This document shows, piece by piece, positions 7,126 through 63,294 of a stretch of DNA of 64,000 bases. Source of the DNA: Methanobacteriota archaeon. Its GTDB lineage: Archaea > Thermoplasmatota > Thermoplasmata > RBG-16-68-12 > JAFNFQ01. Below the pieces are notes generated by a model. It worked only from the letters and a program-made list of their open reading frames with translations, did no database searches and was not told where the DNA came from. The DNA lies in NCBI GenBank assembly GCA_017885655.1, contig JAFNFQ010000004.1, forward strand, positions 89,373 through 153,372. The letters run 5' to 3'. A program made the translations under genes and the position numbers. The stretch's first letter is position 1; each line of letters opens with the position of its first letter.

Positions 7126-7138
7126 CCTGAGGAAGTGA

Positions 7139-10334: not shown

Positions 10335-10396
10335 ATTCCATTGCGGTATCCCCGTCCCAAGAAAGCCTTATAGGGTTCAACAACATCGTCGGCTCG

Positions 10397-10702: not shown

Positions 10703-10736
10703 TCGCTACTTACGGCTTTTGAGGAAAGCTCCTCCA

Positions 10737-12069: not shown

Positions 12070-12138
12070 CCAGTATTTCTGGGCAGTCGCAAATTCTTAA
12101 GTAATCGGCTCGTGTCCCAACCGATCGGTGAGCTGATG

Positions 12139-14862: not shown

Positions 14863-14865
14863 GAA

Positions 14866-38811: not shown

Positions 38812-38943
38812 GAGCTGCCGGGGCGGCGCGGTCTGAGCGTCCTTCATTGTCCCTACTTCAAGGAATCAGACAAGGCATCTGCATCAAGATTCCGTCATCG
38901 CCGGAATCGCATGGTTTAACATCCGCGGGGAGTTCCCACGGAC

Positions 38944-40209
38944 ATGGCCGAGGTCTGGGTCAGCCTGCTCGTCGGCGGGACTCTGCTCCTCATCGGATAT
39001 GGCGCCTCCCTGATTTTCGACAAGTTCCGAATCCCCGACTTCATCGTGCTCATCTTCCTGGGTGTCCTCCTGGCGCAGATACCTGTCGAGCCTTTCGGAC
39101 CAGGTCTCGTGCCCTCGCTCACCCCGATACTGCCGGTCTTCACGGCCCTGACCATAGCATTCATCATGTTCGAGGGGGGCCTCTCGCTGAACCTCAAGGG
39201 CTCGGGCAGGGGGATGCCGGGGGTCCTCGCTCACGTCGCGGTCTCGGTGTTCATCACGGTCGTCCTTATCTGGTTGATCGCGACGCGCCTCCTCGGCTTC
39301 GACGGCGTCACCGCGCTTGTTCTGGCGGGGGCGTTCTGCGGTCCGTCGGCCGCCGTCATCCTCAGCTTCGCGACGCGTCTCAAGCTCGGCAAGGCGGCGG
39401 AGAGGGCGGTCGTGCTCGACGCCGTGGTCACGAACGTCATCGCGGTGATCCTGGTATTCTTCGCGATAAGGTCGGCGAGCGCCGAGCCGGCGACTTTCCT
39501 CCATCAGTATGCGCTCGAGATAGCGCTCGCGACGATCGTGGCGATTGCGGCGGGGATTCCGTGGAGGATGGCGATCAAGCGCTCGCCTTCACGCAAGTTC
39601 ATGTACATCGCGACAGTCGCCTGGGCCCTCGTCATCTATGGCATCGCCGATGGGCTCATCAACGGGAACGGCGCCGTCGCCGCATTCGTCTTCGGCCTCG
39701 TCCTCGCATACCGCAAGCCCGAGGACGCTCCGGACCCGGAGGGGAAGGGCAGCCTCCAGGAGTTCCAGTCCGAGATCACCTTCGGCATGAGGACGTTCTT
39801 CTTCATCTACCTCGGTCTCGTGGTGACGGTGGACAGCGTGACCCCGGTGGCGCTCATTGGCGCTCTCCTCCTGACGCTGGTGTTCGTCGTGTCGAGGGTG
39901 CCGAGCTCGATCGCTCTGGGCAGGCTATCCGGGTTCAGCAAGAGGGAGACGAGGGTCCTCATCGCGTCGATGGCGCGCGGGATGACCGATGTGGTGCTCA
40001 TCCTCATCGCGATCGAGAGCGGAGTCGTACCAGCGTCCTCGGTTCCTCTGCTCGTCGGGCTGGTGACCGTGACTATCCTGGTTGCGGTGGCGGTGTGCGC
40101 GGGGCTGGTCGTCTGGGCGGAGAGGAGCCCCATGGAGGAACAGGCACGTGAGAACCCACCTATTCCACCTGACGCGGATGTCCCTCTGCAATTCGACCGT
40201 CCAGCGTAG
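38944..40209 (+). CDS. Monovalent cation:proton antiporter (CPA1/NhaP-like)
   Basis: Ten to twelve predicted TM helices. The overlapping 434-aa ORF 38847-40151 in another frame is RG-rich and rejected. Confidence 0.85.
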   Translation: MAEVWVSLLVGGTLLLIGYGASLIFDKFRIPDFIVLIFLGVLLAQIPVEPFGPGLVPSLTPILPVFTALTIAFIMFEGGLSLNLKGSGRGMPGVLAHVAVSVFITVVLIWLIATRLLGFDGVTALVLAGAFCGPSAAVILSFATRLKLGKAAERAVVLDAVVTNVIAVILVFFAIRSASAEPATFLHQYALEIALATIVAIAAGIPWRMAIKRSPSRKFMYIATVAWALVIYGIADGLINGNGAVAAFVFGLVLAYRKPEDAPDPEGKGSLQEFQSEITFGMRTFFFIYLGLVVTVDSVTPVALIGALLLTLVFVVSRVPSSIALGRLSGFSKRETRVLIASMARGMTDVVLILIAIESGVVPASSVPLLVGLVTVTILVAVAVCAGLVVWAERSPMEEQARENPPIPPDADVPLQFDRPA

Positions 40210-41656: not shown

Positions 41657-41719
41657 GGCGGCGGCGAGATGAAACGTGGGCGTAAATATTCTTCCGCGGA
41701 AAGCCTTCAACAGGGAATC
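41576..41719. repeat. Direct repeat copy 2 of the GNAT promoter/5' segment
   Basis: See copy 1. Copy 2 ends where the Fic gene (41718-42656) ends. Confidence 0.7.
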
Positions 41720-42656
41720 AGCGGGCTTGCGTCCCCGGCTGGACCGTTTCCGCGTACCGCGCTAGTGCATGCTTGCTTGAATACCATGTGCGGCCGATCT
41801 TGACGGCCTCGAGCACTCCCTGCCGCGCGCGCAACGAGAGGTATTCCTGAGAATACGCGCTGCCCCGGGCAAGCTGTCTCAGGGGGACGAGAGCACGTTC
41901 GGGATCCACCGCGGACAGGAACACCGCCAGCCCCTCGTCAACAGCATGCAGTACGAAGCCCGAGAGCGGTCCGTACCGGCCCCGGTCCGCCTCATCGAGA
42001 CACTTGTAGTACCGCCGCCTGTCCTCCACGCGGAGGACGACAGGCGCGTATCCTGCGCTGATGAGCACCAGGTTGGCGGCCAGCCGCGCGGTCCTCCCGT
42101 TCCCGTCGAGGAACGGATGGATCGATGCGAGGCGGTGATGCAGGCAGATGCTGCGGAGGACCGGCTCGCGGATGGCGGGAAGTCCCTTGAACAGCTGGTC
42201 GAGTCGCCGGACGATCTCGGATGGGGGCGGCGGGAGGTGCGCCGAACCGCCGATCCGGACCTGCTGCCGTCTGTACTCCCCTGGAGACTCCAGCGTCCCC
42301 TTCGTGACCATTTCGTGGAGCTTCTTGAGGGGGGCATGGTCGAACCGCAGGCCAGGACGGCCACTCTCCCATATCCAGTCGAAGGCCTCCGCGTTGTTCG
42401 TGGCCTCGAGGTGTTCGCGGACGCTCTTCCCCCCGATCGTGATCCCCTGCTCGATGATGAGGCGGGTCTCCTTGAGGCTGAGCGTGTTCCCCTCTATGGC
42501 GTTGCTGTTGTAGGTGTGGTAGAGGCGCAGCTGCTGCCGCAATCGTTCCAGGACGTCCCGGGGAAGGGGCCTGCGGGACCGCAGCTCCTTGAGATTCGAC
42601 TGGACCCGCCGCCATGTCACAGGAGGAAGGTCGGAGACGGATATCGGTATCGGCAT
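41718..42656 (-). CDS. Fic/Doc-family protein
   Basis: Canonical Fic motif HPFLDGNGRTARL. Confidence 0.85.
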   Translation of the reverse strand: MPIPISVSDLPPVTWRRVQSNLKELRSRRPLPRDVLERLRQQLRLYHTYNSNAIEGNTLSLKETRLIIEQGITIGGKSVREHLEATNNAEAFDWIWESGRPGLRFDHAPLKKLHEMVTKGTLESPGEYRRQQVRIGGSAHLPPPPSEIVRRLDQLFKGLPAIREPVLRSICLHHRLASIHPFLDGNGRTARLAANLVLISAGYAPVVLRVEDRRRYYKCLDEADRGRYGPLSGFVLHAVDEGLAVFLSAVDPERALVPLRQLARGSAYSQEYLSLRARQGVLEAVKIGRTWYSSKHALARYAETVQPGTQAR

Positions 42657-42800: not shown

Positions 42801-43493
42801 TCATCCGGCGGTGAACACGTCCCATCTCGAGACTTTCGCGCCCGCCGACCTCAACTCCTCGATGAGGGCGGTGGCGTCCTCGTCCGAGAGCATGAGGACT
42901 GATGGGGAGACGACAGTCGCCTCGTACCTGTCCTTGAGCCCCTCGTACCTGTAGATCGTCCGGCGCCCTCCGACCTCCTTCGTCGAGACGGACCCGTGGA
43001 CCTTACGCGACACCTGCACCTTCTTGCCGGGCGGGAGGCCTGTGAGGTCATAGGAGACTAGGACCATCGGCCTCAACGCGAGGTGGTCGGGCGTGAGGAC
43101 GAACTTGCCCTGGAGCACGACTCCCTCCCGGAACACGTTCCTCAGGAAGCTCGGGTCGAGGTCCCTCAGGTTCGTGGGGATCGCGTTGATGTCCCTGTGG
43201 GGCCTGAGCGCTGTCACCATGCGCGCGATCTGCCGGTTGAGCGTCTGGGGAACCCTGCGGTCGACTATCACGAGGAGGTCGATGTCGGACCTGCGGTCGA
43301 ATTCGCCGCGGGCGAGGGAGCCGAATAGCACTACCCCGCCAGCTCGGACGATTCCCTGAAGGCCGTCGAGGAACCTCTCGATGAGCCGCCGGTCGTCGTC
43401 GGGGAGCTCAGTGAAGCTCGGCTTCGATGTCCCCGAGGATCTCCTTCGCTCTCTTGGCCGACTTTCCATCTCCTTTTCCTCCGTAGTGTTCAT
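42801..43493 (-). CDS. Nucleotidyltransferase-domain protein (MNT-like N-terminus + about 110-aa C-terminal domain)
   Basis: LFGSLARGEFDRRSDIDLLV = GS...D.D minimal nucleotidyltransferase signature. Confidence 0.8.
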   Translation of the reverse strand: MNTTEEKEMESRPRERRRSSGTSKPSFTELPDDDRRLIERFLDGLQGIVRAGGVVLFGSLARGEFDRRSDIDLLVIVDRRVPQTLNRQIARMVTALRPHRDINAIPTNLRDLDPSFLRNVFREGVVLQGKFVLTPDHLALRPMVLVSYDLTGLPPGKKVQVSRKVHGSVSTKEVGGRRTIYRYEGLKDRYEATVVSPSVLMLSDEDATALIEELRSAGAKVSRWDVFTAG

Positions 43494-43571: not shown

Positions 43572-43620
43572 TCATCGGAACCTGTATCCCTCCGGGAAGC
43601 ATCTCAGCAGCTTCCCCGGC
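43572..43620. repeat. Copy a of a repeated gene-3' segment (X-type end, shortest copy)
   Basis: Shares TCA.CGGAACCTGTATC..TCCGGGA.GCAT.T.AGCAGCTTCCCC with copy b. The minus-strand reading ends ...GKLLRCFPEGYRFR* versus ...GKLLKCIPDRYRFQ* in copy b. Confidence 0.55.
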
Positions 43621-44125: not shown

Positions 44126-44259
44126 CTATCTACGCTCCTTGCGCTGAAGATGTCTCGACAAGCTTTAAATGTTTCCAGACACCACACGTCACCGGGTATT
44201 CGGGGTCGCGGATCCTGCGCAATCGATGCAGGCGATCCTTGGACGCCCCTCGCCCGGAT

Positions 44260-44427
44260 TCACTGGAACCTGTATCTATCCGGGATGCATTTGAGCAGCT
44301 TCCCCTCCGAGCCCTCGTGGACGCACGTCTCCTTCAGGTCGCATCCGGGGCAGAACCGTGCGCGGATCTCGCTCTCCTCCAGCCCCAGGAGGCCCGCCTG
44401 GTCGAACAGTTCGTGGAGGAGCTTCAG
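44260..44427. repeat. Copy b of the repeated gene-3' segment (about 165 bp)
   Basis: 129 bp (44299-44427) align with 49156-49284 of gene 49088-49492 at roughly 90% identity by eye. Minus-strand reading LKLLHELFDQAGLLGLEESEIRARFCPGCDLKETCVHEGSEGKLL matches LKLLHDMFDQAGLLGLDESEIRVRFCPECDLRATCVHEGSEGRL. In frame after the 44497-44973 gene stop. Confidence 0.7.
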
Positions 44428-44496
44428 GTTCCATCCCCCGGGATCAGGCGGTCCCCGGCGGGGTCGGTGCTCCTCTCTCGGTCATCGTCCGGCAGC

Positions 44497-46562: not shown

Positions 46563-46700
46563 CTAGGCACGTGACTTCGCACCGCCTCTGAGAATGACGG
46601 TCGCAACTCCATCCAGGCACAGCGGCGACAGCTTCCCCTCCGAGCCCTCATGGATGCACGTCTCTTTCAGGTCGCATCCGGGGCAGAACTGCACATGGAG
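46563..46700. repeat. Copy c of the repeated gene-3' segment (about 140 bp, Y-type end)
   Basis: Minus-strand reading VQFCPGCDLKETCIHEGSEGKLSPLCLDGVATVILRGGAKSRA* versus RFCPECDLRATCVHEGSEGRLSPLCLDGVATAILRANFESSI* of the full gene. Similarity continues about 25 bp past the stop codon. Confidence 0.7.
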
Positions 46701-46751
46701 CCCGACCGATTTAAATTGACGCGGTGTGCCGATGCTCGGAGACGACCGCGA

Positions 46752-47921
46752 CTAATCGAGGATTATATCGAGATAGGGCCGATAGGCGAAAACTCGATTG
46801 CGCCTGTTCCCCGTCTGTTCATTCAAAAGCGCGAGCCCCTCCAGTTCGACCGCGAGTTCGTTCGCGCTCGGGAACGACAGCCCTGTGACCCTCTGCATAT
46901 CGTTCACCGAGACCATCGGGTGCTGGTACATGAACTCGATGAGAATGAGTGCGCCTCCCGCCCTTCGTCCCATTGCATTCTGGATCAACCGCCTATGCTC
47001 CTCACGCAGCTGGATGATTCTCTTCGCTGTCTCGGTCGCCTGCCTGGACACCTCGTCGACGCCTTTCAGGAAGAACCTCAGCCAGCCCTCCCAGTCCCCC
47101 TCGTCCCTGACCGCCTGCAGCGTGTCGTAGTACGAAGACCTGTTCTGGCGGAAGTAATGTGAAAGGTAGAGCAGGGGCCGCTCGAGATAGCCCTCCGCCG
47201 TCAAGAGGAAGGTGATGAGCAGACGCCCCATCCTCCCGTTGCCGTCCAAGAACGGATGGATCGTCTCGAACTGGCTGTGCGCGAGCCCCACCTTGACCAG
47301 CGGCGGCAAGGATCTCTCTGTCAGGAGAAAGCGCTCCAGATCGTCGAGGGCCTTTCTCATCTCGGGTACAGCAGGCGGGACGAAGGCTGCATCTTCAATC
47401 CCCCTCTCCGAGGGGCCGATCCAGTTCTGCACCGACCTCAGCTCGCCAGGACTATGGCTGCTGCCCCTGCCCCTGCTGAGCAGGCGAGCATGTATCTCCT
47501 GAACGAGCGCGACAGACAGCTCTCTCCCCCTCGCGATCTGACCCAGACCGTGGTTCATCGCGTCGATGTAGTTGGACACATCGACGACATCGCGAGGGTG
47601 ACCGCGCAGGCGCGCGCCCGCCTCGTACTCGAGGAGGTCGATCAGCGATGATTGGGTGCCCTCGATCTGGCTGGACAGTACGGCCTCTTTCCTGATATAC
47701 ATGAAGACGAAGAGGTCCGGGTTCGGCAGGGTCTCCGTCGCCCCGCTGAGCCTCCCAAGGTTCCTGTCCGCTTGCGAGAGGATGCTCAGCATCGAGCTGT
47801 CGAAGTCGATCGGAGGATTGGGCGGGAGCGGTTTGGGGACATATGTGCGATAGCCTTCCGGTTGCATCGCATATTGACCTGCACGCGCGGTCGTTTTTAC
47901 CATATTTAAGCCAGCCTTCAC
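46752..47921 (-). CDS. Fic-family protein with C-terminal winged-helix region
   Basis: Fic motif HPFLDGNGRMGRLL; 389 aa with the C-terminal wHTH typical of long Fic proteins. Confidence 0.85.
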   Translation of the reverse strand: MKAGLNMVKTTARAGQYAMQPEGYRTYVPKPLPPNPPIDFDSSMLSILSQADRNLGRLSGATETLPNPDLFVFMYIRKEAVLSSQIEGTQSSLIDLLEYEAGARLRGHPRDVVDVSNYIDAMNHGLGQIARGRELSVALVQEIHARLLSRGRGSSHSPGELRSVQNWIGPSERGIEDAAFVPPAVPEMRKALDDLERFLLTERSLPPLVKVGLAHSQFETIHPFLDGNGRMGRLLITFLLTAEGYLERPLLYLSHYFRQNRSSYYDTLQAVRDEGDWEGWLRFFLKGVDEVSRQATETAKRIIQLREEHRRLIQNAMGRRAGGALILIEFMYQHPMVSVNDMQRVTGLSFPSANELAVELEGLALLNEQTGNRRNRVFAYRPYLDIILD

Positions 47922-48119: not shown

Positions 48120-48199
48120 TCACTCCGACTTCGCTCTCAGGATGACTGTGGCGATCCCGTCCAGGCACAGCGGCGACAGCTGCCCCTCCGAGCCCTCGC
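48120..48199. repeat. Copy d of the repeated gene-3' segment (shortest Y-type copy, about 80 bp)
   Basis: GTCCAGGCACAGCGGCGACAGCTGCCCCTCCGAGCCCTCG is shared with copies c and e. Minus-strand reading ...GSEGQLSPLCLDGIATVILRAKSE*. Confidence 0.6.
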
Positions 48200-48345
48200 G
48201 GAGGCGTAATTCTCCTGCGGCACTCCGGGCGGAACCGCACACGGGATTTACTCTGACGGAATTCTCCTATCCTAGGCCGATTGCGTTATGAAAGTACACA
48301 GAATCATTATGGCCGCGAATGCGTTGCCATTCGCGTGGATGAGAC

Positions 48346-48861
48346 ATGACTGCAGAGCGCACGATGCTGTTCATGGACGGATCGAATCTTTTCCACTCCA
48401 CCAAGGACTTCGACCCTGGATTGAAAATCGATCTCGTGAAACTTCGAGATTTCTTGGCGAAAGACAGGCTCCTGATACGCGCATACTACTATGGCTCGAT
48501 ACCGATTGGGAATCCGGAGAGAATCGCGAAACAGACCGCCTTTCATCACTTGCTCGAGTACAGCGGTTTCAAGACGGTGATTTTGCCGCTGCGCAGGCGA
48601 GGGGCGGAGTACGTGGAGAAAGGTGTCGACGTCTCCCTTGTTACCGACATGTTGGCGCTTGGGTTCGATCGAGCTTACGAGTGCGGCATTCTCGTGGCTG
48701 GCGATGCCGACTATGTCAGGGCGATTCAAGAGGTAGAACGCAAGGGCATCAGGATTCACGTCGCATTCTACGATCTCCCCTTATGTGCGGGCGACCTGAG
48801 ACGGGCTGCACATTCGTTCGTCTCGCTGGATAAGCATCTTGAGGAATTCAGGAAGTCGTGA
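48346..48861 (+). CDS. NYN-domain (LabA-like) protein, paralog 1
   Basis: MLFMDGSNLF ... YYYGS ... EKGVDVSLVTDML ... LVAGDADYVRAIQEV, matching the NYN/LabA core. The likely true start is the ATG at 48364. Confidence 0.8.
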   Translation: MTAERTMLFMDGSNLFHSTKDFDPGLKIDLVKLRDFLAKDRLLIRAYYYGSIPIGNPERIAKQTAFHHLLEYSGFKTVILPLRRRGAEYVEKGVDVSLVTDMLALGFDRAYECGILVAGDADYVRAIQEVERKGIRIHVAFYDLPLCAGDLRRAAHSFVSLDKHLEEFRKS

Positions 48862-49087: not shown

Positions 49088-49492
49088 CTAGATGGACGAT
49101 TCGAAGTTTGCGCGGAGTATCGCGGTCGCAACACCGTCCAGGCACAGCGGCGACAGCCTCCCCTCCGAGCCCTCGTGGACGCACGTCGCCCTCAGGTCGC
49201 ATTCGGGGCAGAACCGCACGCGGATCTCGCTCTCATCCAGCCCCAGGAGGCCCGCCTGGTCGAACATGTCGTGGAGGAGCTTCAGGTACTTGCCCTCGGC
49301 TATGCGCGGCACGTCGTACTTCGCCGCCTTCAGTCCCCCGCGCGCGGTCCAGTACTCGTAGAGGCGCCGCGCGCCCTTGGAGCTGTTGCACAAGGGGCCG
49401 ACCCGGAAGGCATTCCTCCCGCCACTAGTCAATAAATGGCGATTGCATTCCGTGCAGCTTCGCCACGAATTCTTCAGTCTTCTTAAAGTCAC
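49088..49492 (-). CDS. Hypothetical small Cys-pair protein (134 aa if GTG at 49492); the full-length gene whose 3' end recurs in copies a-d
   Basis: SCTECNRH ... FCPECDLRATCVHEG Cys pairs. 3' region 49088-49284 is the repeat unit. The GTG start overlaps the upstream RNase-III-like gene by 68 nt, so the true start may be an internal TTG/GTG/ATG. Confidence 0.5.
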   Translation of the reverse strand: MTLRRLKNSWRSCTECNRHLLTSGGRNAFRVGPLCNSSKGARRLYEYWTARGGLKAAKYDVPRIAEGKYLKLLHDMFDQAGLLGLDESEIRVRFCPECDLRATCVHEGSEGRLSPLCLDGVATAILRANFESSI

Positions 49493-49937
49493 GATCAGTA
49501 TCTAAGTAAACGGCTCCTATGAGCGCCTCTAGCGTCTCGGCCGGAATTCTCGGTTGCACATCGAGGCTCTTATCTCTCTCCGACCCTCCCAGCCGAATGA
49601 GACCTCCGACTCCTTTTTCCAGTGCGAGTTTTGCTAACGTCGGTTTCTCTTCCATCTTTCTCCTTTCCACGGTAATTTTGTCCCCTGTCTCGAAGCCGGA
49701 GTGATATAGGATATCGGTTAGTGCCGCTTTGAGCAAAGCATCGCCCAAGGTCGCGAGCGCTGTCTGATCCTCACATTTCGGTTGCTGCAACGCCCGATCC
49801 TCGACAAACTTCTGACGGGTCAATGCACGGATGAGAATATCTGTGTTTCCGAATCGATGGCCGAGAATTCCTTCCTCTTCGTTCGCTTTGATGATCTTGT
49901 CCATTGGGTCTTCGAGTTTCAAGCAATCACCTCGCAC
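49425..49937 (-). CDS. RNase III-domain-like protein (170 aa, single catalytic-domain type)
   Basis: LATLGDALLKAALTDILY and ETLEALIGAVYLD resemble the RNase III signature (ERLEFLGDA ... EALIGAIYLD). Confidence 0.55.
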   Translation of the reverse strand: MRGDCLKLEDPMDKIIKANEEEGILGHRFGNTDILIRALTRQKFVEDRALQQPKCEDQTALATLGDALLKAALTDILYHSGFETGDKITVERRKMEEKPTLAKLALEKGVGGLIRLGGSERDKSLDVQPRIPAETLEALIGAVYLDTDRDFKKTEEFVAKLHGMQSPFID

Positions 49938-50150
49938 ATATGTCTGTTCATGCTAATCCTGTCGTGTTCCATTGCTATTCCCCTCGCCGACATGCAAATG
50001 CATGGGGTCCTATTTCAAAGATGGCTTGCGCATGATGGTGACATCCCGCCCACCGCTAGATCGTCCTGCTGAGTTAAGTGTCAATTTGAGAATGTCAATC
50101 GCGACCTTTATCAAACTCTATATACGCGACACTCACATTCGGTTAATCGA

Positions 50151-50633
50151 TTGCGCATGGCAGGAGTTACGTGCCTGACCTTGTCGGGGGACAACTACTG
50201 GGCGGTCGTCAACAGCGTCTGGTCTCTTCTGTATGAGGGGCTTTCAGTCCCTAGCCACCTCATTCTCATAACTAACGGCCGCCACAAAGATGTCGCGAAG
50301 AGGGCTTCCGATTCGTTGCAGACACTGCTTTCCTTCTATGGGATGACCAGCGTCCCCGAAATCATCGTCGTCCCCGAATATGACCTGCGCCAGGTACACG
50401 ACAAGCTGTTTGAAATCATGCAGAAGGCCAAGTCGGAGGGAGAAGTCGCTCTCAATATCACTCCGGCTAGAAAGTCGCTTGCCACAGTCGCCATGGTCGC
50501 CGCATGGGAAACTAAGGTGAATAGAATCCATTACGTTTACCTCAGAAGTCTCAAGGACGCCGATTGTCCCTATCCCCTCATAGCAAGGGATCTCCATGAA
50601 TTGCTCGACTTGAAGGAGCTCCGCCCGAAATGA
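50151..50633 (+). CDS. CARF-like Rossmann-fold sensor domain protein (degenerate ligand-site motif)
   Basis: VTCLTLSGD ... HLILITNG ... VALNITPARKSLATVAMVAAWE ... IHYVYL parallels the Csa3-like protein in this window (VHIATVGE ... LHINITGGTNIMASAALIAG ... VYYI), but with NITPA in place of NITGG. TATA CTATATAC at 50118-50125; likely ATG at 50157. Confidence 0.45.
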   Translation: MRMAGVTCLTLSGDNYWAVVNSVWSLLYEGLSVPSHLILITNGRHKDVAKRASDSLQTLLSFYGMTSVPEIIVVPEYDLRQVHDKLFEIMQKAKSEGEVALNITPARKSLATVAMVAAWETKVNRIHYVYLRSLKDADCPYPLIARDLHELLDLKELRPK

Positions 50634-51718
50634 GCACATGGTGCGCGCCCAGCAGATTCCTGATGGCGCTGGTCAACAGGATTTTTGGATATGGACGCGG
50701 GGTAATCACAATCAGATATCCACTCTATGGCACGGAGCTCTTCTCATTCGATTCATCATTCAAAGTCAAGAGCGCCTCATCCAAGCACAAGTTTTACGAA
50801 GCGCGAAAGGCTGCAACCTCATGGAGCAAGGAGCTGAGTCACGAAGCGCCCGAGTGGAACCAAGTGATGGACTCGTTCGTATCCTCTGGGACATTGAAGC
50901 CTCAGAACCTCGCCGATTTCGCTGTATGGGCCAGGAAGACACTGGAGGATAGGAGACGTCCGGAATTGGCAGCTCGCCCATTCTTCCTGGCAATCGATAC
51001 GAATGTAGCTTACAATCGCCTGTTCACGCGGCATTTTCCAATCGATGGCCCAAGCGGCGTCGTTAGAGCTCCAGATTTCAGATTCCTGTTATGCGATGTT
51101 GTCCGTCGAGAAGTCGACGAACAGATTAAACGAAAATATCGCGGGGAACTGAACCAAATATTCACCCATCCTGAACAGGAATCGATTCTCAAGGAAATCG
51201 GAGGACGCAATGTCCTCGTGGCGCGAAGGGCCAAGCTCGCTCAGAATGAAATCGACTACCTTGACAAAACGCTCAACGCCTTGACTGTTCCTTGCACGGA
51301 GTTCCCCTCAGACAAGGAAGATCGAGATATTCTCATCGCAAAGACCTACGGAGCATTCAGCCGGGACAGAAACGTGGACATAGCGCTGCTGACGATGGAC
51401 CAGAACATGGTGGACCACGCGAAGAATGCTCAGATTATGTCCTTCTCGTTAAGGGTCCCTGGAGCTTCGGAACTGGAGAAGGTCGAACTGCACTACTCCC
51501 TGTGGCATCTGCTCCACGATCTGGCCGTTGCGCTAGGCGTGATTGACATAGAGCCCTTCGGGACGCGGGTGTACGGCGAGTGGGCCGGAAAAACCACGTC
51601 TGACTACGGCGCAGAGAGAGTGAAGATAGTTCTCGACGACAAAGCTCCAATAGCGAATGAAGTGGTCAGGGACTTCCGGATTTGCGCGAAAGTCTTGGGA
51701 GTGTCAATTAGCGGCTGA
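50630..51718 (+). CDS. PIN-domain nuclease with N- and C-terminal extensions
   Basis: ATGA overlap with the CARF-like gene. PIN core PFFLAIDTNVAYN ... DVVRREVDEQ ... LLTMDQNMVDHA. Confidence 0.65.
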   Translation: MSTWCAPSRFLMALVNRIFGYGRGVITIRYPLYGTELFSFDSSFKVKSASSKHKFYEARKAATSWSKELSHEAPEWNQVMDSFVSSGTLKPQNLADFAVWARKTLEDRRRPELAARPFFLAIDTNVAYNRLFTRHFPIDGPSGVVRAPDFRFLLCDVVRREVDEQIKRKYRGELNQIFTHPEQESILKEIGGRNVLVARRAKLAQNEIDYLDKTLNALTVPCTEFPSDKEDRDILIAKTYGAFSRDRNVDIALLTMDQNMVDHAKNAQIMSFSLRVPGASELEKVELHYSLWHLLHDLAVALGVIDIEPFGTRVYGEWAGKTTSDYGAERVKIVLDDKAPIANEVVRDFRICAKVLGVSISG

Positions 51719-53230
51719 CGGTTTGCCATCGTGGGATTCAGCGACTATGTCGGCGCCTAGATCCTTCGCTCTCTGTGTGACACGTTTAGCATCATCAGGT
51801 GACTTGGCCAGGATGTATTTCTTCCCTTTGTGTTGGAATAGATCTACATCTTCTTCTGACTTCAACCTCTGGGCACCCTTTGGAAGAGTCGGAGGGAGCA
51901 CTGTCCAACGGTACACGATCTCGTGGGGCAATGATTGCACCTCCCCCTCATCGGGAATAGGGAATTCCTTGGGCTCGGTCTCCGCCATCGAGTCCAACGA
52001 TTTCGCTTGAATTGTGCCAAGGTCTTTCTCGATTGTCCCTCCTACGATTGCCGGCGACAGTCCCCTGCCGTCCCAGAGGAGGCATTCGCCGGTAACCTGG
52101 CCGCGGGGCAGGTTCTCCGTCAGCCTGAAGTGGAATGTCTTGGGCCATGACTCCATCAGGGTTCGAAGACTCTCGCACTGGGCGGGGGTGAGTTGGACAC
52201 CGGTCTCGAACCCGGTATCTAATCCGCGTGATTCTACATTGGCCGTCATCACGATGCCACGCATCTTGCCGCTCATCTTGCCTAACATGGCTTTCGCGTG
52301 CAGGTACCTGTGAGCATATACATCCGCGCCTCCGCGCATCAGATTCACGGCAGCCTCCATGTTCTTGACGCGGGGTCGCATGAAAATGTGCGTTCTCAGC
52401 CCACCCTTGACCCTCTTCAGCAGGTTTTGTGTGACTTCGTGTTTCATATCGAGATTATAGATTGACATCCAGAAATCATCCTGTGCACTCTCCACGAAGT
52501 CCAACAGAGATTGCCTGAGGGTTTGCATGTTCTGCGTCGTCACGGGCAGGTCAGACGGCAACACGGACTTTATCTCCATCCTACCGGACTTGCTGACCGG
52601 TTCTAGGCGTCCAGCTCGGAACAGCTCGTGTTCGCTCTCCTGCCAGAATCCGATTCTGAACTGTTCGAAAAGCGCTTTCGCAAGATCACCTTTCAAGGGG
52701 ATAACCACCTCAACGTTCCGTGTCAAGGCTTCTGTGGCAAGATTTGCGGTGGAAAGGAAGGCTGCCGTCTTGCCAGGACTCCGCGGATCGACGATCACAA
52801 ATTTCGAATGGAAGTGCCCTGCTGTGCGGACCAATACTCTGCCCGCCAATGCGTCCAATGTCGCCTTATGCTCCTCAACCTGCCTCTTAGCGAATTCCGA
52901 TTCCTGAGAAAGGTCTTTGAGCAGATGTTGCTCCGACATCGTCAGCACGTAACAGCGCACACCTCTTTTCGACGCCTCCAGGAGCGCGTTGCCGATATTC
53001 TGATCGTAGAACAGGAAAGAGCAAAGGCATACCGTTTCCATAGAAGAGCGTATGGCTTCGACGATCATCGAACGGGCGAACCCAGTTTCCTCGGTGGGCC
53101 ATATGGTGGCGTCGCGCCTCGGCGGCACTGCGGGCGATCCCATCTGAGGCGCCAAAGGAATCCATGCAATCCCTAGAGGATTTTCCCTGAAAGGCTTGAT
53201 CATCTTCTTCTCTAGCGCCCAAGTGCTCAT
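51704..53230 (-). CDS. Phospholipase-D-family nuclease (two HKD motifs), MkoB-like
   Basis: HFHSKFVIVD and HAKAMLGK HxK motifs. ATG at 53230 gives an ATGA overlap with the upstream gene; the track ORF from 53278 would overlap it by 52 nt. Confidence 0.8.
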   Translation of the reverse strand: MSTWALEKKMIKPFRENPLGIAWIPLAPQMGSPAVPPRRDATIWPTEETGFARSMIVEAIRSSMETVCLCSFLFYDQNIGNALLEASKRGVRCYVLTMSEQHLLKDLSQESEFAKRQVEEHKATLDALAGRVLVRTAGHFHSKFVIVDPRSPGKTAAFLSTANLATEALTRNVEVVIPLKGDLAKALFEQFRIGFWQESEHELFRAGRLEPVSKSGRMEIKSVLPSDLPVTTQNMQTLRQSLLDFVESAQDDFWMSIYNLDMKHEVTQNLLKRVKGGLRTHIFMRPRVKNMEAAVNLMRGGADVYAHRYLHAKAMLGKMSGKMRGIVMTANVESRGLDTGFETGVQLTPAQCESLRTLMESWPKTFHFRLTENLPRGQVTGECLLWDGRGLSPAIVGGTIEKDLGTIQAKSLDSMAETEPKEFPIPDEGEVQSLPHEIVYRWTVLPPTLPKGAQRLKSEEDVDLFQHKGKKYILAKSPDDAKRVTQRAKDLGADIVAESHDGKPSAAN

Positions 53231-54357
53231 CGAACCGCCTCCTGCTTCCCCAGGTCGGTTGGTGCCCGCAAGTACCAATATGCCGCTGGCAATAAATCAC
53301 CACGAAGGATTGCGCCATGCCGAATCTGATCGGCCATCTTATCATGTTCAGGCAATGTGATATCGAAATCTGGGAATCTGTCGGTGACACCGCGGACTAG
53401 TTTAGGATAGCTGTTTTCATCAAGGTATTCGGTGATTTCATGCTCGAGAACCCACTCCCCCCATTCTTGTGCGTCTTTGACCGTTCGCGGGGCAATTGGC
53501 ACGTCACGGATTTCTGTTTCATCAAACGTGCCGTATTCACTCACGGTCGGCCTATCTAACTTCAGTTGCCTCGACATCGACGTCTTCTCTGCATCCGACA
53601 CCTCATTGAAGCCGCATCGCAAGACCCCTCTTCGAGCATCCCATGCCTGGCGAGTGTCGCCCAACAACTCAAGGAAAATGCTTTCGTGGGAAACCTTGGG
53701 CGACTCCATATCCCACTTTGCGAAACCTTCTGCCATGAGCTCAGATTCTCTATCAGGGTGGATGATCCATTTCAGCGAAAGCCTCTCATTCTGTTCCACC
53801 TGCGAACGTACGCATCGTTCAGCGACTGACATGATGCGGATTCGCTCCCCTAATCGTGGAAGCATGATTGACTGGTCTTTCAATTCGACAAGCCATGGCG
53901 GCACCTGCTCGACCTCCTCAGATTGTTTGCCTTTCGATTCGAGCCTCCTCGCCGCCCTGCGCGCGTTCACGATGTCCTCCACCATGGGCTCGTGCGTGCC
54001 TTCCAAATCCAGGATTCGCTGAGGAACCAACGGGTCGGTCGTGCAAAGAATTCTATAACGTCCATGCTCTGGCAATGGCACAGTTTTTCGCTCAAGCGAT
54101 TCTCTCCCTAAAGGCGTGAGACTTCCATAATCGTCAAGTAGCCCGAGATCTCGGCAGCGCGAAATTACCGTATGGCCAACGGCTATCGGTCGATCAATGA
54201 GGAGGGAATTGCAGATGTCCTCTGCTCTGATTTGTCCTCCGAGTTCTTCCGCTCGCATCAGAACGGAGATGACATCCTTGCGCCTCTCCTCCCTCCCGAC
54301 TTCCATAACAACTTCATACGCGGTCATTGACACATTTCGACTAAGGATGATCTTCAT
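53227..54357 (-). CDS. Hypothetical protein (376 aa) embedded between the helicase and PLD genes
   Basis: 4-nt overlaps on both sides indicate co-translation within the operon. No recognisable motif; the N-terminus is possibly wHTH-like. Confidence 0.6.
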   Translation of the reverse strand: MKIILSRNVSMTAYEVVMEVGREERRKDVISVLMRAEELGGQIRAEDICNSLLIDRPIAVGHTVISRCRDLGLLDDYGSLTPLGRESLERKTVPLPEHGRYRILCTTDPLVPQRILDLEGTHEPMVEDIVNARRAARRLESKGKQSEEVEQVPPWLVELKDQSIMLPRLGERIRIMSVAERCVRSQVEQNERLSLKWIIHPDRESELMAEGFAKWDMESPKVSHESIFLELLGDTRQAWDARRGVLRCGFNEVSDAEKTSMSRQLKLDRPTVSEYGTFDETEIRDVPIAPRTVKDAQEWGEWVLEHEITEYLDENSYPKLVRGVTDRFPDFDITLPEHDKMADQIRHGAILRGDLLPAAYWYLRAPTDLGKQEAVR

Positions 54358-57002
54358 CTTGTGTTCGACCTCCCTTCTTTTGAACTGTATGAGAAGGCTA
54401 TTGGTATCTGGGTCCCGAGCCGCCGCAACAAATCAGATTTCCACTGGCGGGCGAAGCCCCTGCAATTCCCCACTAGGACCAATTGGAATCGCCCTCTCGT
54501 TATCGCGACGTTCAATCTATGAGGACTGTCGAGGAATCCAATGCTTTTTCTTCCGAGTGGATCCCGAACAAAGGATAAAAGCACGAAATCTGCCTCGTGC
54601 CCTTGGAATCGGTCAACAGATCCAAGAGAGACGCGGACCCTGCCATCGCCGGTCTTGAAATGCTGCCTGTTCCAAGACTTGAACAAGCTACGCAATCGTC
54701 GTCTCAGCTCGCTTTCTTGGGCGAGATAGAATGTCAGCACGGCAACATCCCACGGCAATATAGTGCCGTTCTTCTTCTTCGGATTGCTAGTCGCCCACGA
54801 AAGGAAGGTCTGGAGCTCATCCATTATAATGTCGGCCTCGGCAAAATTGCGGTTGGCGTTCGGATCTTCATTCGCTAGAACATGAATCCAAACGGATCGG
54901 GCGCCGTATCTTCCGATATTCAGAGACCGCTGTGAAGCAATGTTTGGTGGGTCTCTGAGGCTTTGGCCTTCGTAGATATTCTCACGCGGGAACCGGGAGA
55001 TATCAGGATGCATTCGATGCTGATACGTCAAGACCGCGTGTCGCTTGCTCAGAACTTCCGTGGGCAGCCCGTGGGTGATTGCCGTTGGCTCATACTTCAT
55101 CTGCTCCCTTTCGAATCCGACTTGAAGCATTTCCAGGATAGAAGGCAGTGCTACGCGCTTGATTGAATTGACTTCATATGAAATACGATTCATTTCTTTT
55201 TCATCGAGCCACTTTGGCAGGAGCGCGTCGACATCTGCGGCGTACCGTTTCGCCTCTTCAGGCCGACGGCGGAGTTCAAACTGACGAATGAGGCGCCATC
55301 CGATTTCCGAAGCCCACGTTTTCTCCTCGCGTTCCATCTGTTCCTCATTGTCGGCCTCCTCGGGATGACGCACTCGCCAGTACGCCATTCTTCGCTCGAG
55401 GCGTGACGTGATAACCGTCTCGGAGAGAACTTGAACATTCAGAGGCAATAAACGACCGATGACGGTCAAATCCTTCGTGTCAGCGACCATCAGGTCGGCC
55501 CAAAGTGGCCCCAGGTCTCCACTATCGATCGTCTGCGGCGACAATTGTACCGTAGGTATGCCCAGCGCTTCCGCTTGTTTTACTGCCCATTCCCTGACCT
55601 TCGGGTCGGGGTCGCAAAGGAGAAAGCTGCGTTTCTCGCCCTTCTTGCGACGCGCCCGCACGAAGGCCTTGAACACTGGTAGTATCGCGCGGCTTTCCCT
55701 CTCGTCCAGGATGCCCGCAAGATTGGCCTCGACCTCGACATTGTTCACGAAGGGTGATAGCTGATTGACATCTCCAACGAGGACCCATTTCTTCGCATAG
55801 AGTGCTGGAACCAAGAACTCCTGGAATGGGGTCTTGCTCGCCTCATCAACAATCAGTGTGTCAAACTCCGGGAACGCCGGCCGCACGAGACCCACCGCTA
55901 TGTCAGGATGTTTGAGAATGCCTATGGTGGTCCCGCATACGAGATTCGCAGAATCCAGGATCAATCGCTGAAGAACCTTTTCGCCATCTTCTTCCAAAGC
56001 TTTCAGCAGGTAGTCCTGTGCGGGGGTCCTCCGCGCAATGCCTTTGAGTTTCTTCTTGAGTTCGTTCCTCTCAGTCTCGAGCCGGTTCTTGAGCAGAAGA
56101 TGAGAGACTTGCTCGGAAACGTCGAAATCCCTCGAGGCAATTCGCACCGCGACGACGGACCTTTCCATCCACCCCAGATCTACAAGCTTCTCCAAGACAT
56201 TGTCAACCGCCACATGCGTGGATGCGCAAAGAAGGACTCGATGTCCCAGCTCGATTTCTTGAAGAATCAACTCGCAGATGGTGACGGTTTTTCCGCTGCC
56301 GGGGGGCCCTTCAAGAATCGCGAAATCCGGGGTGCCAAGGGCTTTCTCCACAAAGTCACGTTGTTCATCGACTCCCGCAAAGTCGTCATCGACCAGTATT
56401 CTCCAGTTAATGGGGGAGACAGCCGCAACTGGTTCCCATCGAACATTGTTGTAGCCTTCGGCCAATGAAATCAAAGGCCTGTGAGCAGGGTGAGGACTCT
56501 GCCGAATATTCTCCAGGGCCATTAGCTCGCGATAGAGGTTCCATGTATTGGGGTGAATGTAGACTTTCTCTGCAGCTGGCAATCGGGACACACAGATCGC
56601 GTCAATTTCGGGCTCCCTGTCAAGCACCTCAATATCGCCGCGTCCTGCCTTTGCTTTATCGGAAATGAAATCCGCATCGAAGAACTCATCGAACACTTCT
56701 TCGGGAGTCTCAGCGTCGATTTCTCTCAGACGAATCCAAAATCCCATCGCACTCGTTTTTCGTTGTGCCGGTTGGTGAATGTTTTGTTCGGAGGGCATCG
56801 ATCCATTGGCGGTTCGATTTCGGATAATCTCTGGGTCAATAGGTCCCTCCCAGGCGAGCATCAATGCCTGCGCTTCAATCCTGTACTTTGCGCTGCTAAG
56901 ATACTTGTAGAACGGTCGGTAGTTGTTGTAGGTTCTTTCCAAGAGAACCTGAATGTCTGTGTTAGGAACTCTTGGCATATTAGCAAAGTGCAGGTTCAGC
57001 AT
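54354..57002 (-). CDS. Superfamily-1 Upf1/DNA2-like helicase (COG1112-type, MkoA-like) with about 230-aa N-terminal domain
   Basis: Walker A GPPGSGKTV, Walker B LIVDEASKT, motif VI VAITRGRFQLVLVG. Confidence 0.85.
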   Translation of the reverse strand: MLNLHFANMPRVPNTDIQVLLERTYNNYRPFYKYLSSAKYRIEAQALMLAWEGPIDPEIIRNRTANGSMPSEQNIHQPAQRKTSAMGFWIRLREIDAETPEEVFDEFFDADFISDKAKAGRGDIEVLDREPEIDAICVSRLPAAEKVYIHPNTWNLYRELMALENIRQSPHPAHRPLISLAEGYNNVRWEPVAAVSPINWRILVDDDFAGVDEQRDFVEKALGTPDFAILEGPPGSGKTVTICELILQEIELGHRVLLCASTHVAVDNVLEKLVDLGWMERSVVAVRIASRDFDVSEQVSHLLLKNRLETERNELKKKLKGIARRTPAQDYLLKALEEDGEKVLQRLILDSANLVCGTTIGILKHPDIAVGLVRPAFPEFDTLIVDEASKTPFQEFLVPALYAKKWVLVGDVNQLSPFVNNVEVEANLAGILDERESRAILPVFKAFVRARRKKGEKRSFLLCDPDPKVREWAVKQAEALGIPTVQLSPQTIDSGDLGPLWADLMVADTKDLTVIGRLLPLNVQVLSETVITSRLERRMAYWRVRHPEEADNEEQMEREEKTWASEIGWRLIRQFELRRRPEEAKRYAADVDALLPKWLDEKEMNRISYEVNSIKRVALPSILEMLQVGFEREQMKYEPTAITHGLPTEVLSKRHAVLTYQHRMHPDISRFPRENIYEGQSLRDPPNIASQRSLNIGRYGARSVWIHVLANEDPNANRNFAEADIIMDELQTFLSWATSNPKKKNGTILPWDVAVLTFYLAQESELRRRLRSLFKSWNRQHFKTGDGRVRVSLGSVDRFQGHEADFVLLSFVRDPLGRKSIGFLDSPHRLNVAITRGRFQLVLVGNCRGFARQWKSDLLRRLGTQIPIAFSYSSKEGRSNTR

Positions 57003-57901
57003 CCAATTTCCCTTCCCCTTTCCCTCAACACTCCGAAGATCTCCTTGTCATCAGCGATGACCTTCCCCCCGGGACGCCATTGGTAATGGCCGCCTCGAAC
57101 AAGAAACTTTCGCCTATCCCATCCCGCTCTCTGAATAGCATCTTGCACTCCGACCTCGAGAATCGACGGTCCGAACCCATAACTGCCACCCGTATTCTGG
57201 AAGAATCGACCGAGTGGGTCCATCATGAGGTATGAGTCTGTCATGGCCCGATTATCCTCTTTGACTGGATTGAGGCATTCATGGCGAGCGACGAAGGCTT
57301 CGAACTGCCCATTCATAGTGGCCAAGTCTGCGAAGCTGTCATCGTTCTCTCCTTTTATTGGGAGCATTTGAAAGACCTTCCACCGCCGAGGTTTCAGTTC
57401 GGCAACGAAGGATCGCATGTCTTCTCCCCAATTCATTGAGGTGACAACAGTGTTGACTTTGAATCGTATGCCGAATTCATGAATCCGCTTTGCCACTTCG
57501 CGAACAAGTGCGACATGATTTCCATCACCCCGCCCGAGAGCTTTTTCCACTTGCTCTGATGCGCTGTCAACGCTCAGAGCGATCCAGTCGACTAGGTCTG
57601 CAATCGTGCTGAGATAGGTCTTATTCAGCCGCGTCCCGTTCGATATGATCATCGTTGTCAGGCCAGCTTCTTTTGAAGCCTGAAGTACCTCTCGGAGGTG
57701 GGAACACAATGTCGGCTCCCCTCCCGCCAAGGTCAACTTTTCCGTCCCCGCTTTGCGGAGAATCTCCGGAATCTTCACCGCCTGATTCATCGAAAGCGGG
57801 GTACAGATTCCCTTGAAATGGGCGAAGCAGAATCTGCAGCGATAGTTGCACCATGGCCATATATGCCAATTCACCGAAACCGGTTCCACGCCCCCATTCA
57901 T
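56996..57901 (-). CDS. Prokaryotic viperin (pVip) radical-SAM enzyme
   Basis: Residue-level correspondence with animal viperin: PVSVNWHIWPWCNYRCRFCF vs [20 protein letters not shown]; AGGEP vs SGGEPF; ISNGTRL vs VSNGSLI; FKVNTVV vs FKINSVI; RWKVFQMLPIKGEN vs RWKVFQCLLIEGEN; MTDSYLMMD vs MKDSYLILD; ILEVGVQDAIQRAGWDRRKFLVRGGHYQW vs [29 protein letters not shown]. Confidence 0.9.
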   Translation of the reverse strand: MNGGVEPVSVNWHIWPWCNYRCRFCFAHFKGICTPLSMNQAVKIPEILRKAGTEKLTLAGGEPTLCSHLREVLQASKEAGLTTMIISNGTRLNKTYLSTIADLVDWIALSVDSASEQVEKALGRGDGNHVALVREVAKRIHEFGIRFKVNTVVTSMNWGEDMRSFVAELKPRRWKVFQMLPIKGENDDSFADLATMNGQFEAFVARHECLNPVKEDNRAMTDSYLMMDPLGRFFQNTGGSYGFGPSILEVGVQDAIQRAGWDRRKFLVRGGHYQWRPGGKVIADDKEIFGVLRERGREIGC

Positions 57902-57946
57902 CTAGATTGTCAGGTATTGCAGACACCTATAGCGGTTCTCTTTTAT

Positions 57947-57967
57947 AGTAAAATGCTGCATTTTACT
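57947..57967. promoter_or_regulatory. Perfect 10-bp inverted repeat (AGTAAAATGC-T-GCATTTTACT) in the pVip/csa3 divergent promoter; candidate Csa3 operator
   Basis: Lies between the TTTTATAG TATA-like box (57941-57948) and the csa3-like ATG (57973), i.e. over the expected leaderless transcription start. Confidence 0.4.
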
Positions 57968-57972
57968 GACGG

Positions 57973-58617
57973 ATGTGCGCAGTCCATATAGCCACGGTCG
58001 GCGAAACGCCCGAGCCAATCATAGAAGGCGTCAGACACCACAGCGTCGATTTGCAGGTGCTCCTGCATAGTCGCGAGACAAAGAGTGTTGCCGTCGAAAT
58101 TCGCAGGAGGATTAAGAGCCTTATTGGCAGAGACATCTGTGAGCTGAAGGAGATCGATCCGTTCGACATGCGCGACATCATGACTGCCATCGTCTCATAT
58201 CGAAAAAGGATGCCCGCGGAGGTGCTCCACATCAACATAACGGGCGGAACCAACATCATGGCATCTGCGGCCCTGATAGCGGGATTCGTGGTCGGGGCAC
58301 GCGTTTACTATATCCGGAAGGATCCAAACCCGAAGATACCGCTCGCTGATCGTATCATCGAGCTTCCGGTTCCCCGCGTTTCTCTTGAGAGCCTCGACGA
58401 GAATCATCGCAGGATTCTGAAATTGATACATAATCGAGGAACGGAGTTCGCTCCGGCCAACAGCGTGATTGCGACCGAATTGGGGATGTCGCGGCAGCTC
58501 GTGAGCTACCACCTCAGGAGGCTCGAGAGGGCGGGCTTATTGCACCTGACACTTGAAGGTCGAAACAAGATCGCGAGTCTGACGCCCGAAGGAGACCTCT
58601 ACGCTGAGATTGTTTGA
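57973..58617 (+). CDS. csa3: Csa3-like transcriptional regulator (CARF domain + winged HTH)
   Basis: CARF motifs VHIATVGETPEP and LHINITGGTNIMASAALIAGFVVGARVYYI; C-terminal wHTH RILKLIHNRG ... IATELGMSRQLVSYHLRRLERAGLL. Confidence 0.8.
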   Translation: MCAVHIATVGETPEPIIEGVRHHSVDLQVLLHSRETKSVAVEIRRRIKSLIGRDICELKEIDPFDMRDIMTAIVSYRKRMPAEVLHINITGGTNIMASAALIAGFVVGARVYYIRKDPNPKIPLADRIIELPVPRVSLESLDENHRRILKLIHNRGTEFAPANSVIATELGMSRQLVSYHLRRLERAGLLHLTLEGRNKIASLTPEGDLYAEIV

Positions 58618-59635: not shown

Positions 59636-60199
59636 ATGCAACATTCGATGCCTGAGAGATTGATGATTTTCATCGATGGTTCAAATCTCTTTCACACCGG
59701 TCGACTGTACGGGAAGCATTACCGAATCGAGGACCTATGCAACGAACTGTCCGCGGACAGACAACTCGTCCGGACCTACTACTATGGTTCCATTCCCACT
59801 GGCGGAGACGACGACAAGGTGGAGAAGCAGAAAGGATTCCATATGAGGCTGGAATATGGGGGAATCAATGTCAGCATCATTCCGCTGAAGACACGGGAGG
59901 TCAATTTTAAATGTCCAAAGTGTGGGGCAAAATCGGCTTTCAGCCGCAATGTCGAGAAGGGGGTGGACGTCGCGCTCGTCACTGACATGCTTGCTTTCGG
60001 TTTCCGCGATGGCTACGATGTGGCCTTGCTGGTCGCGGGCGACCTGGATTACATCAGAGCGATTGAGGAAGTGAAGAGGATACCAAAAAGGGTCGAGATA
60101 GCATTCTTCGAGAGCATCCAGGCGATCAGCGGCGCACTGAAGAGGAAAGCGGATCGCTTCATTCCTCTGGAACCGATAATCAACAAGATCGGCACCTAG
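59636..60199 (+). CDS. NYN-domain protein, paralog 2, with an inserted CPKCG zinc-ribbon
   Basis: MIFIDGSNLF ... YYYGS ... KCPKCG ... EKGVDVALVTDML ... LVAGDLDYIRAIEEV. Confidence 0.8.
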   Translation: MQHSMPERLMIFIDGSNLFHTGRLYGKHYRIEDLCNELSADRQLVRTYYYGSIPTGGDDDKVEKQKGFHMRLEYGGINVSIIPLKTREVNFKCPKCGAKSAFSRNVEKGVDVALVTDMLAFGFRDGYDVALLVAGDLDYIRAIEEVKRIPKRVEIAFFESIQAISGALKRKADRFIPLEPIINKIGT

Positions 60200-62661: not shown

Positions 62662-63294
62662 ATGCGAGACACGGAAGCAGATTCGGAAATAGGTGTGAGC
62701 GCGGATGTGGGAACGTCAGCCAAGAGAGTGGCCGTCTTCGTTGACGTGCCAAACCTCTGGGTCGTTGCGAAAGACAATGGTTTCGATTTTGACACGAAAC
62801 CAGTGATCGACGCAGCAAAGACCTACGGTCGGGTCGTTCTCGCAAAGGCATATGCCGCCATCCAGTGGGGGCGGCCAGTGAATTCTGGGGTGATAGACCT
62901 CGAGCATGTCGGCTTCGAGGCCGTGCATAGATGCGTGTCGCCGAAAGATGGCAATGGAAAGAAAGACATCGACTCCCTACTCTTGACGGATATGATCGTG
63001 GCCGCGTACGAAAACGTGGCCGACACGTTCCTGCTTGCAAGTGGAGACTCAGACTACGTTCCAGCCATTCGGACGATCAGACGGCTTGGCAAGAAGGTCG
63101 TGGTCATGTCATACCCCGCCCAGATGTCCCCGCGGCTGCTTGCAATCGCAGACGAGGCCATATCGATGATCCCCCCCTGCGAAGTGAAGGATCCCGGGAA
63201 CGAAAGTTGTGCAATGCCCCCCGCCATCCGGGATTCGACGTGGAGTCGGGACTGTGGGGTCCCTGTTGATGGCTCAGCAGGAGTCAAAGGATAG
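62662..63294 (+). CDS. NYN-domain protein, paralog 3
   Basis: VAVFVDVPNLW ... KDIDSLLLTDMIVAAY ... LLASGDSDYVPAIRTIRRLGKKVVV. Confidence 0.75.
   Translation: MRDTEADSEIGVSADVGTSAKRVAVFVDVPNLWVVAKDNGFDFDTKPVIDAAKTYGRVVLAKAYAAIQWGRPVNSGVIDLEHVGFEAVHRCVSPKDGNGKKDIDSLLLTDMIVAAYENVADTFLLASGDSDYVPAIRTIRRLGKKVVVMSYPAQMSPRLLAIADEAISMIPPCEVKDPGNESCAMPPAIRDSTWSRDCGVPVDGSAGVKG

Follow-up and report, generated by a model that had tools for sequence, protein, structure and literature searches.

A 64,000-nucleotide stretch of the genome of an uncultured Methanobacteriota archaeon (assembly GCA_017885655.1, contig JAFNFQ010000004.1, positions 89,373 to 153,372 of the forward strand), here called the window, encodes at 50151-51718 two overlapping genes, one for a small CARF protein and one for a larger PIN-domain protein. 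With a probability that we put at about 60%, this pair is a two-subunit split CARF-PIN RNase of the CARF_m1 clade that is gated by cyclic oligoadenylate (cOA). The CARF subunit of 158 amino acids (aa), probably a homodimer as other CARF proteins are, would bind cOA in a pocket formed by its strand-1 loop and its ITPARK loop and would be docked on the 362-aa PIN subunit. Ligand binding would switch on the metal-dependent PIN RNase, which would degrade RNA non-specifically and thereby arrest the infected cell. The overlap of the two genes would keep the subunits co-translated. Our best guess for the ligand, made by analogy, is cyclic tetra-adenylate (cA4), because the structural neighbours of the CARF subunit bind cA4, the related CARF-PIN protein SiRe_0806 was crystallised with it, and the R105/K106 dyad is like that of the enzyme Sis0455. 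From the observations described below, we infer that the subunits associate, that cOA is the ligand, that the nuclease is activated and not inhibited, and that its substrate is RNA.

A CARF sensor and a PIN nuclease

The small protein proved to be a genuine CARF domain, of the catalogued CARF_m1 clade. In the PADLOC library, which contains profile models from the CARF classification of Makarova et al. (2020), it matched two standalone CARF_m1--CARF models (PDLC01971, 3.4e-23; PDLC01972, 1.8e-20) as well as positions 9-134 of the 465-position fused model CARF_m1--CARF_PIN (PDLC01973, 7.9e-18). Its Pfam matches were sub-threshold (HFX_2341_N, 0.0024; Csa3_N, 0.007), and no NCBIfam model matched either the CARF protein or its PIN partner. 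An AlphaFold2 (AF2) model built with 51 homologues showed a six-stranded Rossmann-like CARF fold (mean predicted local distance difference test score, pLDDT, 91.6), and its nearest structural neighbours were cA4 binders. The CARF fold that a previous sequence-only reading of this DNA had proposed was thus borne out by structure prediction with Foldseek and by the CARF_m1 match. Nothing else is appended to this fold, as the Pfam and PADLOC scans gave no helix-turn-helix (HTH), ribbon-helix-helix (RHH) or AbrB match and the upstream protein is wholly CARF.

The same reading had labelled this domain degenerate, pointing to NITPA (residues 100-104, nt 50454-50468) in the place of the NITGG found in the neighbouring Csa3-like protein (57973-58617). 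Both motifs are present, and it is the label that has to be dropped. CARF domains carry after strand 4 the signature [DN]x[ST]xxx[RK] (PMC4012209), to which the motif II loop of the window protein, N100-I-T102-P-A-R105-K106 (50454..50474, plus strand), is a complete fit; this loop also follows strand 4 and is predicted to bind phosphate. When 204 family members were aligned to the family profile with hmmalign, T102 was conserved in 97%, K106 in 94% and R105 in 82% of them. At position 103 Pro (64%) and Ser (21%) dominated, and at position 104 Gly (75%) and Ala (23%). Based on the statistics for these two positions, ITPARK is an ordinary clade variant of 'ITGG.K', and a ligand-dead or degenerate CARF was ruled out by the motif statistics as a whole.

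The motif I loop, G11-D12-N13 (50187..50195, plus strand), follows strand 1 and aligns to the GTS of Sso2081. In the hmmalign statistics, the family consensus is G-R-S, with Ser in 70% of members, and the Asn of the window protein occurs in 5%. Sso2081, a Crn1 ring nuclease, was also the best sequence match of the small protein in the PDB (4.6e-7), its ITGGRK aligning to ITPARK. Residues R105 and K106 of the window protein align to cA4-binding residues of the Crn1 enzymes Sso2081 and Sis0455, and in Sis0455 the residues R105, K106 and D75 bind and cleave cA4 (PMC9638899). Towards the C terminus, the CARF protein has a highly conserved motif specific to its clade (Y126, Y139, I142 and P143), on which the PIN subunit may dock.

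The large protein consists of an N-terminal domain (residues ~1-110), a PIN core (~116-275; 50975..51454, plus strand) and a C-terminal domain (~285-362). Its AF2 model (pLDDT 92.3) has a PIN fold, and the top Foldseek match was 9jxx, the structure of SiRe_0806 in complex with cA4. The profile evidence points the same way: the protein covers positions 217-454 of the 465 in PDLC01973 (7.2e-17) and weakly matches PIN_4 of Pfam (0.065). Searching the PDB by sequence with the PIN-partner profile returned no match, and the PIN core alone gave a chance match to a kinetochore protein (E 0.68). We retrieved 25 clusters of homologues, mostly of 348-363 aa and one truncated at 269 aa. The acidic residues D123 (50996-50998), E161 (51110-51112), D228, E230 and D233 (51311-51328) and D257 (51398-51400; all on the plus strand) were invariant across 24-25 of these clusters, down to 31% identity, and their equivalents are also present in the one copy embedded in a CRISPR locus (L097, see below). 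According to the secondary structure of the AF2 model, these residues lie after strand 1, in a helix, at a helix start and after strand 4, a layout that appears to match that of a canonical PIN domain. The PIN domain noticed in the letters alone is therefore confirmed by both its fold and its invariant acidic residues.

Obligate pairing and the link to type III CRISPR

The two open reading frames (ORFs) and their 4-nt overlap were found as originally described. The CARF_m1 sensor gene occupies 50157..50633 (plus strand) when read from an ATG; an alternative TTG at 50151 would give 160 aa. The ATG is the likelier start, since all close homologues and the public gene calls of this ORF have 158 aa. 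A TATA-like box, TCTATATAC (50117..50125, plus strand), can be read off the sequence ~33 nt 5' of this ATG and is possibly an archaeal promoter that would give the CARF gene a short leader. The gene of the PIN effector, with its three-domain layout, follows at 50630..51718 (plus strand), and its start overlaps the CARF stop in an ATGA (50630..50633, plus strand), with a purine-rich GGAG 13-16 nt 5' of the PIN start, an arrangement that suggests translational coupling. The ATGA junction was also found in L003, L006, L021, L022 and L097, and distant members likewise have a purine-rich stretch 5' of the PIN gene. Compared with a 78-79% identical relative, the ratio of nonsynonymous to synonymous substitution rates was 0.11 for the CARF gene and 0.05 for the PIN gene. 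Such values indicate that both ORFs are real genes under purifying selection.

Pairing of the two proteins is a trait of the whole family. An exhaustive search with the CARF-family profile yielded 414 representatives, mostly of 150-170 aa, and a PIN partner was adjacent to the CARF gene in all 21 informative loci from look-ups and the genome scan and in all 74 informative metagenome loci. In 73 of the latter, the PIN match begins within -3 to +12 nt of the CARF stop, and none of the 95 informative loci had a CARF gene without a PIN partner. The pair is conserved across Thermoplasmatota and Methanomicrobia, and even the remotest CARF members (25-29% identity; Methanoculleus and other Euryarchaeota) have PIN partners that are full-length homologues. 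Fused CARF-PIN homologues, for which the sequence-only reading had suggested a check, do exist as a minority: approximately 10 of the best 150 cluster representatives are 485-531 aa long. The fusions P0097, P0107, P0111, P0127 and P0132 carry an entire PIN partner C-terminal of the CARF domain, and one of these five was seen to be a single ORF, in L018. We considered whether the window pair could be a fused gene broken by a sequencing frameshift and rejected this idea, as the split recurs in ~95 independent loci together with the ATGA junction. The PIN profile match, moreover, starts at residue 1, directly at the CARF stop. The split is a family trait, with sensor and effector as obligately separate, translationally coupled subunits.

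These counts bear on a reading in which the CARF protein acts primarily as a Crn1-type ring nuclease or sponge and clears away cOA, while the PIN protein is a separate nuclease or a co-expressed accessory. The similarity to Sso2081 and the R105-K106 dyad would agree with such a function. Nevertheless, not one of the 95 loci has the CARF gene alone, and in some lineages the two are fused. Obligate pairing and fusions therefore fit the coupling of a sensor to an effector better than a free-standing off-switch. In addition, where the large Crn1 enzymes use a Ser, the window protein carries Asn. We consider a dedicated ring nuclease quite unlikely. A sensor that cleaves its own ligand and so limits itself, as some Csm6 proteins do, would by analogy be compatible with a cOA-gated CARF-PIN RNase.

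One relative of the pair is part of a complete type III CRISPR-Cas operon. On the 172-kb metagenome contig of L097, a type III locus with two flanking arrays spans 127-15324 and encodes, in this order, Cas6, Cas10, Csm3, Cas5 (type III-D), Csm2, Csm3, a Csm3-like protein, CARF_m1, PIN, Csx1, Cas1 and Cas2. Its Cas10 has an HD motif at residue 135 and GGDD at residue 572, and its CARF_m1 (166 aa) and PIN partner (342 aa) genes share the ATGA overlap. This operon assigns the family to cOA signalling, in which CARF-PIN proteins are generally predicted to act (PMC7854544; PMC12669027). Two different CARF-linked RNases, the split CARF_m1-PIN and the CARF-HEPN protein Csx1, thus stand side by side in it. 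The arrays of L097 have a 37-nt repeat, GTTACCATTCCCTTTTATCACGGGTGCTTATGTCAAC.

The gene order of the pair, with a small protein upstream of a PIN nuclease, also recalls VapB-VapC, and the CARF protein could in principle be the stoichiometric inhibitor of a PIN RNase that is constitutively toxic and is set free by ligand binding or by the loss of CARF. Such toxin-antitoxin logic differs from a cOA-activated RNase mainly in the sign of regulation. Against it, the protein upstream of PIN is no DNA-binding antitoxin but a CARF domain whose nucleotide-binding loop is intact, stable CARF-PIN fusions exist, the solved single-chain relative has both parts in one protein, and in L097 the pair is located within a type III operon. 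On this evidence, we hold toxin-antitoxin control to be unlikely.

Several results weigh against gating by cOA. The 64-kb window yielded neither Cas10, nor a CD-NTase or other cyclase, nor a CRISPR array, where the scan for cyclases and Cas10 covered ORFs of at least 150 aa; the sequence-only reading had likewise seen no nucleotide cyclase there. Nor did a cyclase, Cas10 or array recur in the ±10 kb around the pair in most of the related loci, and most related neighbourhoods had no cas genes, with L097 as the exception. The window pair is detached from CRISPR, so its signal would have to be made elsewhere in the genome or by a source of another kind. The single CARF-PIN protein for which a test is reported, ST0035, bound cA4 only weakly and had no induced RNase activity (PMC6546367), and our literature search found no biochemical paper on SiRe_0806. 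Finally, the strand-1 loop of the window CARF has Asn at a position that is Ser in 70% of members. A nucleotidyltransferase of the MNT-like type encoded in the window (42801-43493) was considered as a signal synthase and rejected, as it matches MntA-type antitoxins and minimal nucleotidyltransferases and not cyclases.

Some of these results would suit a CRISPR-independent regulator of RNA metabolism, in which the CARF domain senses a nucleotide other than cOA or an RNA end, as the CARF domain of RtcR does with damaged tRNA, and the pair tunes RNA turnover under stress instead of serving defence. In Methanomassiliicoccales and Thermoplasmata, the pair is syntenic with genes for POR, an ABC transporter, arginase, aIF5A and Nop, with no cas genes within ±10 kb, and our searches of viral contigs found no relatives of either the CARF or the PIN protein. 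CARF domains with ligands other than cOA are known (PMC7790460). On the other hand, the basic residue after strand 4, which is mostly missing in RtcR-type CARF domains (PMC4012209), is 94% conserved here, one member of the family is encoded within a type III operon, and the window copy is located in a low-GC defence island. An RNA-metabolism regulator of this kind, inherited vertically in most of the archaea that have the pair, therefore seems improbable to us.

In the same Methanomassiliicoccales and Thermoplasmata, we observed a tight cluster of four co-directional genes encoding a Csa3-like CARF protein with a winged helix-turn-helix (wHTH), a second CARF protein of the HFX_2341_N/Csa3_N type, CARF_m1 and PIN (8201-11074 in L007, 8202-11074 in L019 and L020, and also in L013, L014 and L015). 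Three CARF sensors are thus encoded together. Syntenic housekeeping genes surround the cluster, no cas gene lies within 10 kb of it, and no signal generator is visible.

The viperin block and its low-GC island

The pair in the window is followed by a convergent operon (51704..57901, minus strand) that encodes a PLD nuclease (51704-53278), an unknown 376-aa protein (53227-54357), an MkoA-like SF1 helicase (54354-57002, 4e-83) and a prokaryotic viperin (56996-57901, 2e-83; NCBIfam, 5e-85). The 376-aa protein has a weak wHTH-PRTase_assc match, and a PDB sequence search returned no match for it. Divergent from viperin is a Csa3-like regulator of CARF3-wHTH type (57973..58617, plus strand; PADLOC CARF3--CARF, 9e-49; NCBIfam Csa3, 1.8e-10), the second CARF sensor of this block, which L003 and L105 have as well. 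The 3' ends of the PIN and PLD genes overlap by 15 nt (51704-51718), which leaves no room for separate terminators.

The seven genes, that is, CARF and PIN, the PLD to viperin operon and the Csa3-like gene, form a block that is intact in the window and in two relatives, L003 (78% CARF identity) and L105 (62%), with unrelated flanks. From the PLD gene to the Csa3-like gene, it extends over 51704-58617 in the window, 11075-18025 in L003 and 11502-18465 in L105. The viperin-plus-Mokosh-like operon is thus kept as a unit under a CARF regulator in three lineages. In L105, the PIN partner was called in two pieces (45 aa and 269 aa; 10474-11561), next to an intact CARF gene and an intact viperin operon; the split call could reflect a pseudogene or an assembly error. 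Viperin, helicase and PLD were absent from the ~90 other loci with the pair, and the viperin association is consequently real but confined to one lineage. What had been proposed about a neighbouring viperin-Mokosh operon accordingly stands as a matter of adjacency, with viperin, the MkoA-like helicase and PLD next door; the link is a trait of this lineage, not of the family.

It could be asked whether the pair is a working part of this viperin-helicase-PLD system and responds to a nucleotide made or unmasked there, and not to Cas10 products. The conservation of the seven-gene block in three lineages with unrelated flanks, the two CARF sensors that flank the operon and the failure to find a cyclase in the window would all be in line with this proposal. 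Yet the pair occurs without these genes in the ~90 other loci, neighbouring defence genes are commonly transferred together, which is no proof of coupling, and in L105 the PIN gene looks interrupted next to an intact viperin operon. Participation in a viperin-linked system is therefore very unlikely. Even more speculative, and in our judgement hardly probable, is a self-contained, Cas10-independent circuit of the seven genes, in which the viperin-helicase-PLD operon or the 376-aa protein would make or unmask, in the course of an infection, a nucleotide signal that both CARF sensors read, the Csa3-like protein tuning transcription and the CARF-PIN pair releasing its RNase. If such a circuit did exist, CARF domains would gain a ligand outside the cOA world.

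The pair is located in an island of low GC content (0.51-0.55, compared to 0.58-0.62 elsewhere) that extends over 41718-63294 and is rich in defence and toxin genes. In this island, we found two Fic proteins (41718-42656 and 46752-47921, the latter matching SoFic with 7e-115), three NYN-domain proteins (48346-48861, 59636-60199 and 62662-63294), a standalone RNase III-like protein (49425-49937) and the MNT-like nucleotidyltransferase mentioned above. A dispersed direct repeat of ~115-190 nt, with 4-5 copies of 63-90% identity, occupies intergenic positions in the island (43572-43617, 44257-44441, 46590-46704, 48138-48252 and 49115-49299). A minus-strand ORF of 134 aa (49088-49492), which has a CPEC...C motif, contains one of the copies. 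An Rfam search of the region from 41 to 64 kb gave no match, the repeat included, and it may be a MITE (miniature inverted-repeat transposable element), a gene remnant or an RNA element. Upstream of the island, at 36001-40000, the GC content rises sharply to 0.66-0.685, and a 960-aa ORF (35929-38811) has no Pfam or PADLOC match. The window also encodes Rrp4, RIO1 and HerA, in agreement with an archaeal host.

Relation to known CARF effectors

To our knowledge, all biochemically characterised CARF effectors have sensor and effector in one chain, and CARF-PIN proteins are the least characterised among the predicted cOA-dependent RNases. A natural split form would be convenient for studying how the ligand signal is transferred from a CARF dimer to a nuclease. 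Most copies, including that of the window, are far from any Cas10, which sharpens the question of what orphan CARF sensors detect. The repeated co-transfer of the window copy with the viperin-helicase-PLD genes and the gene of the Csa3-like regulator also offers an archaeal island in which defence cross-talk could be tested.

Among known systems, the pair belongs to the CARF_m1 clade of PADLOC (CARF_m1--CARF and CARF_m1--CARF_PIN), from which it does not differ at the family level: each of its two proteins matches one half of the fused CARF_m1--CARF_PIN model. The solved relative is SiRe_0806 of Sulfolobus islandicus, a crenarchaeon with type III systems. This single-chain CARF-PIN protein is available as an apo structure (PDB 9jxw) and with cA4 (9jxx), whereas the window encodes two chains, which together align to 133 + 236 of its 411 residues. 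Identity is 13-19%, with a profile E value of 0.0028 for the CARF part and no detection of the PIN part, and the window PIN subunit is ~86 residues longer than its counterpart.

The Crn1 enzymes Sso2081 and Sis0455 (CARF_m13) resemble the window CARF in size and CARF fold and share with it the R105-K106 dyad as well as an acidic residue in the region of strand 3. They are standalone proteins with a C-terminal lid insertion, whereas the window CARF is of a family always paired with PIN, has its own C-terminal motif and carries Asn instead of Ser. In VapBC, the antitoxin is a DNA-binding protein that autoregulates its operon, whereas the upstream protein of the pair is a nucleotide-sensing CARF domain, and the PIN protein is ~2.5 times larger than that of VapBC, with extra N- and C-terminal domains. 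As in Csm6/Csx1 (CARF-HEPN), Can1/Can2, Card1 and Cami1, a CARF sensor is coupled to a nuclease in the window pair. It differs from these effectors in having PIN in the place of HEPN, PD-(D/E)xK or RelE, and in being made of separate polypeptides. Taken together, the pair is a member of a known clade, and its architecture equals that of known CARF-PIN proteins. It departs from the textbook in its obligate separate subunits, in the mostly CRISPR-orphan copies of its family and, in this lineage, in the block that it shares with the viperin-helicase-PLD operon and the Csa3-like regulator.

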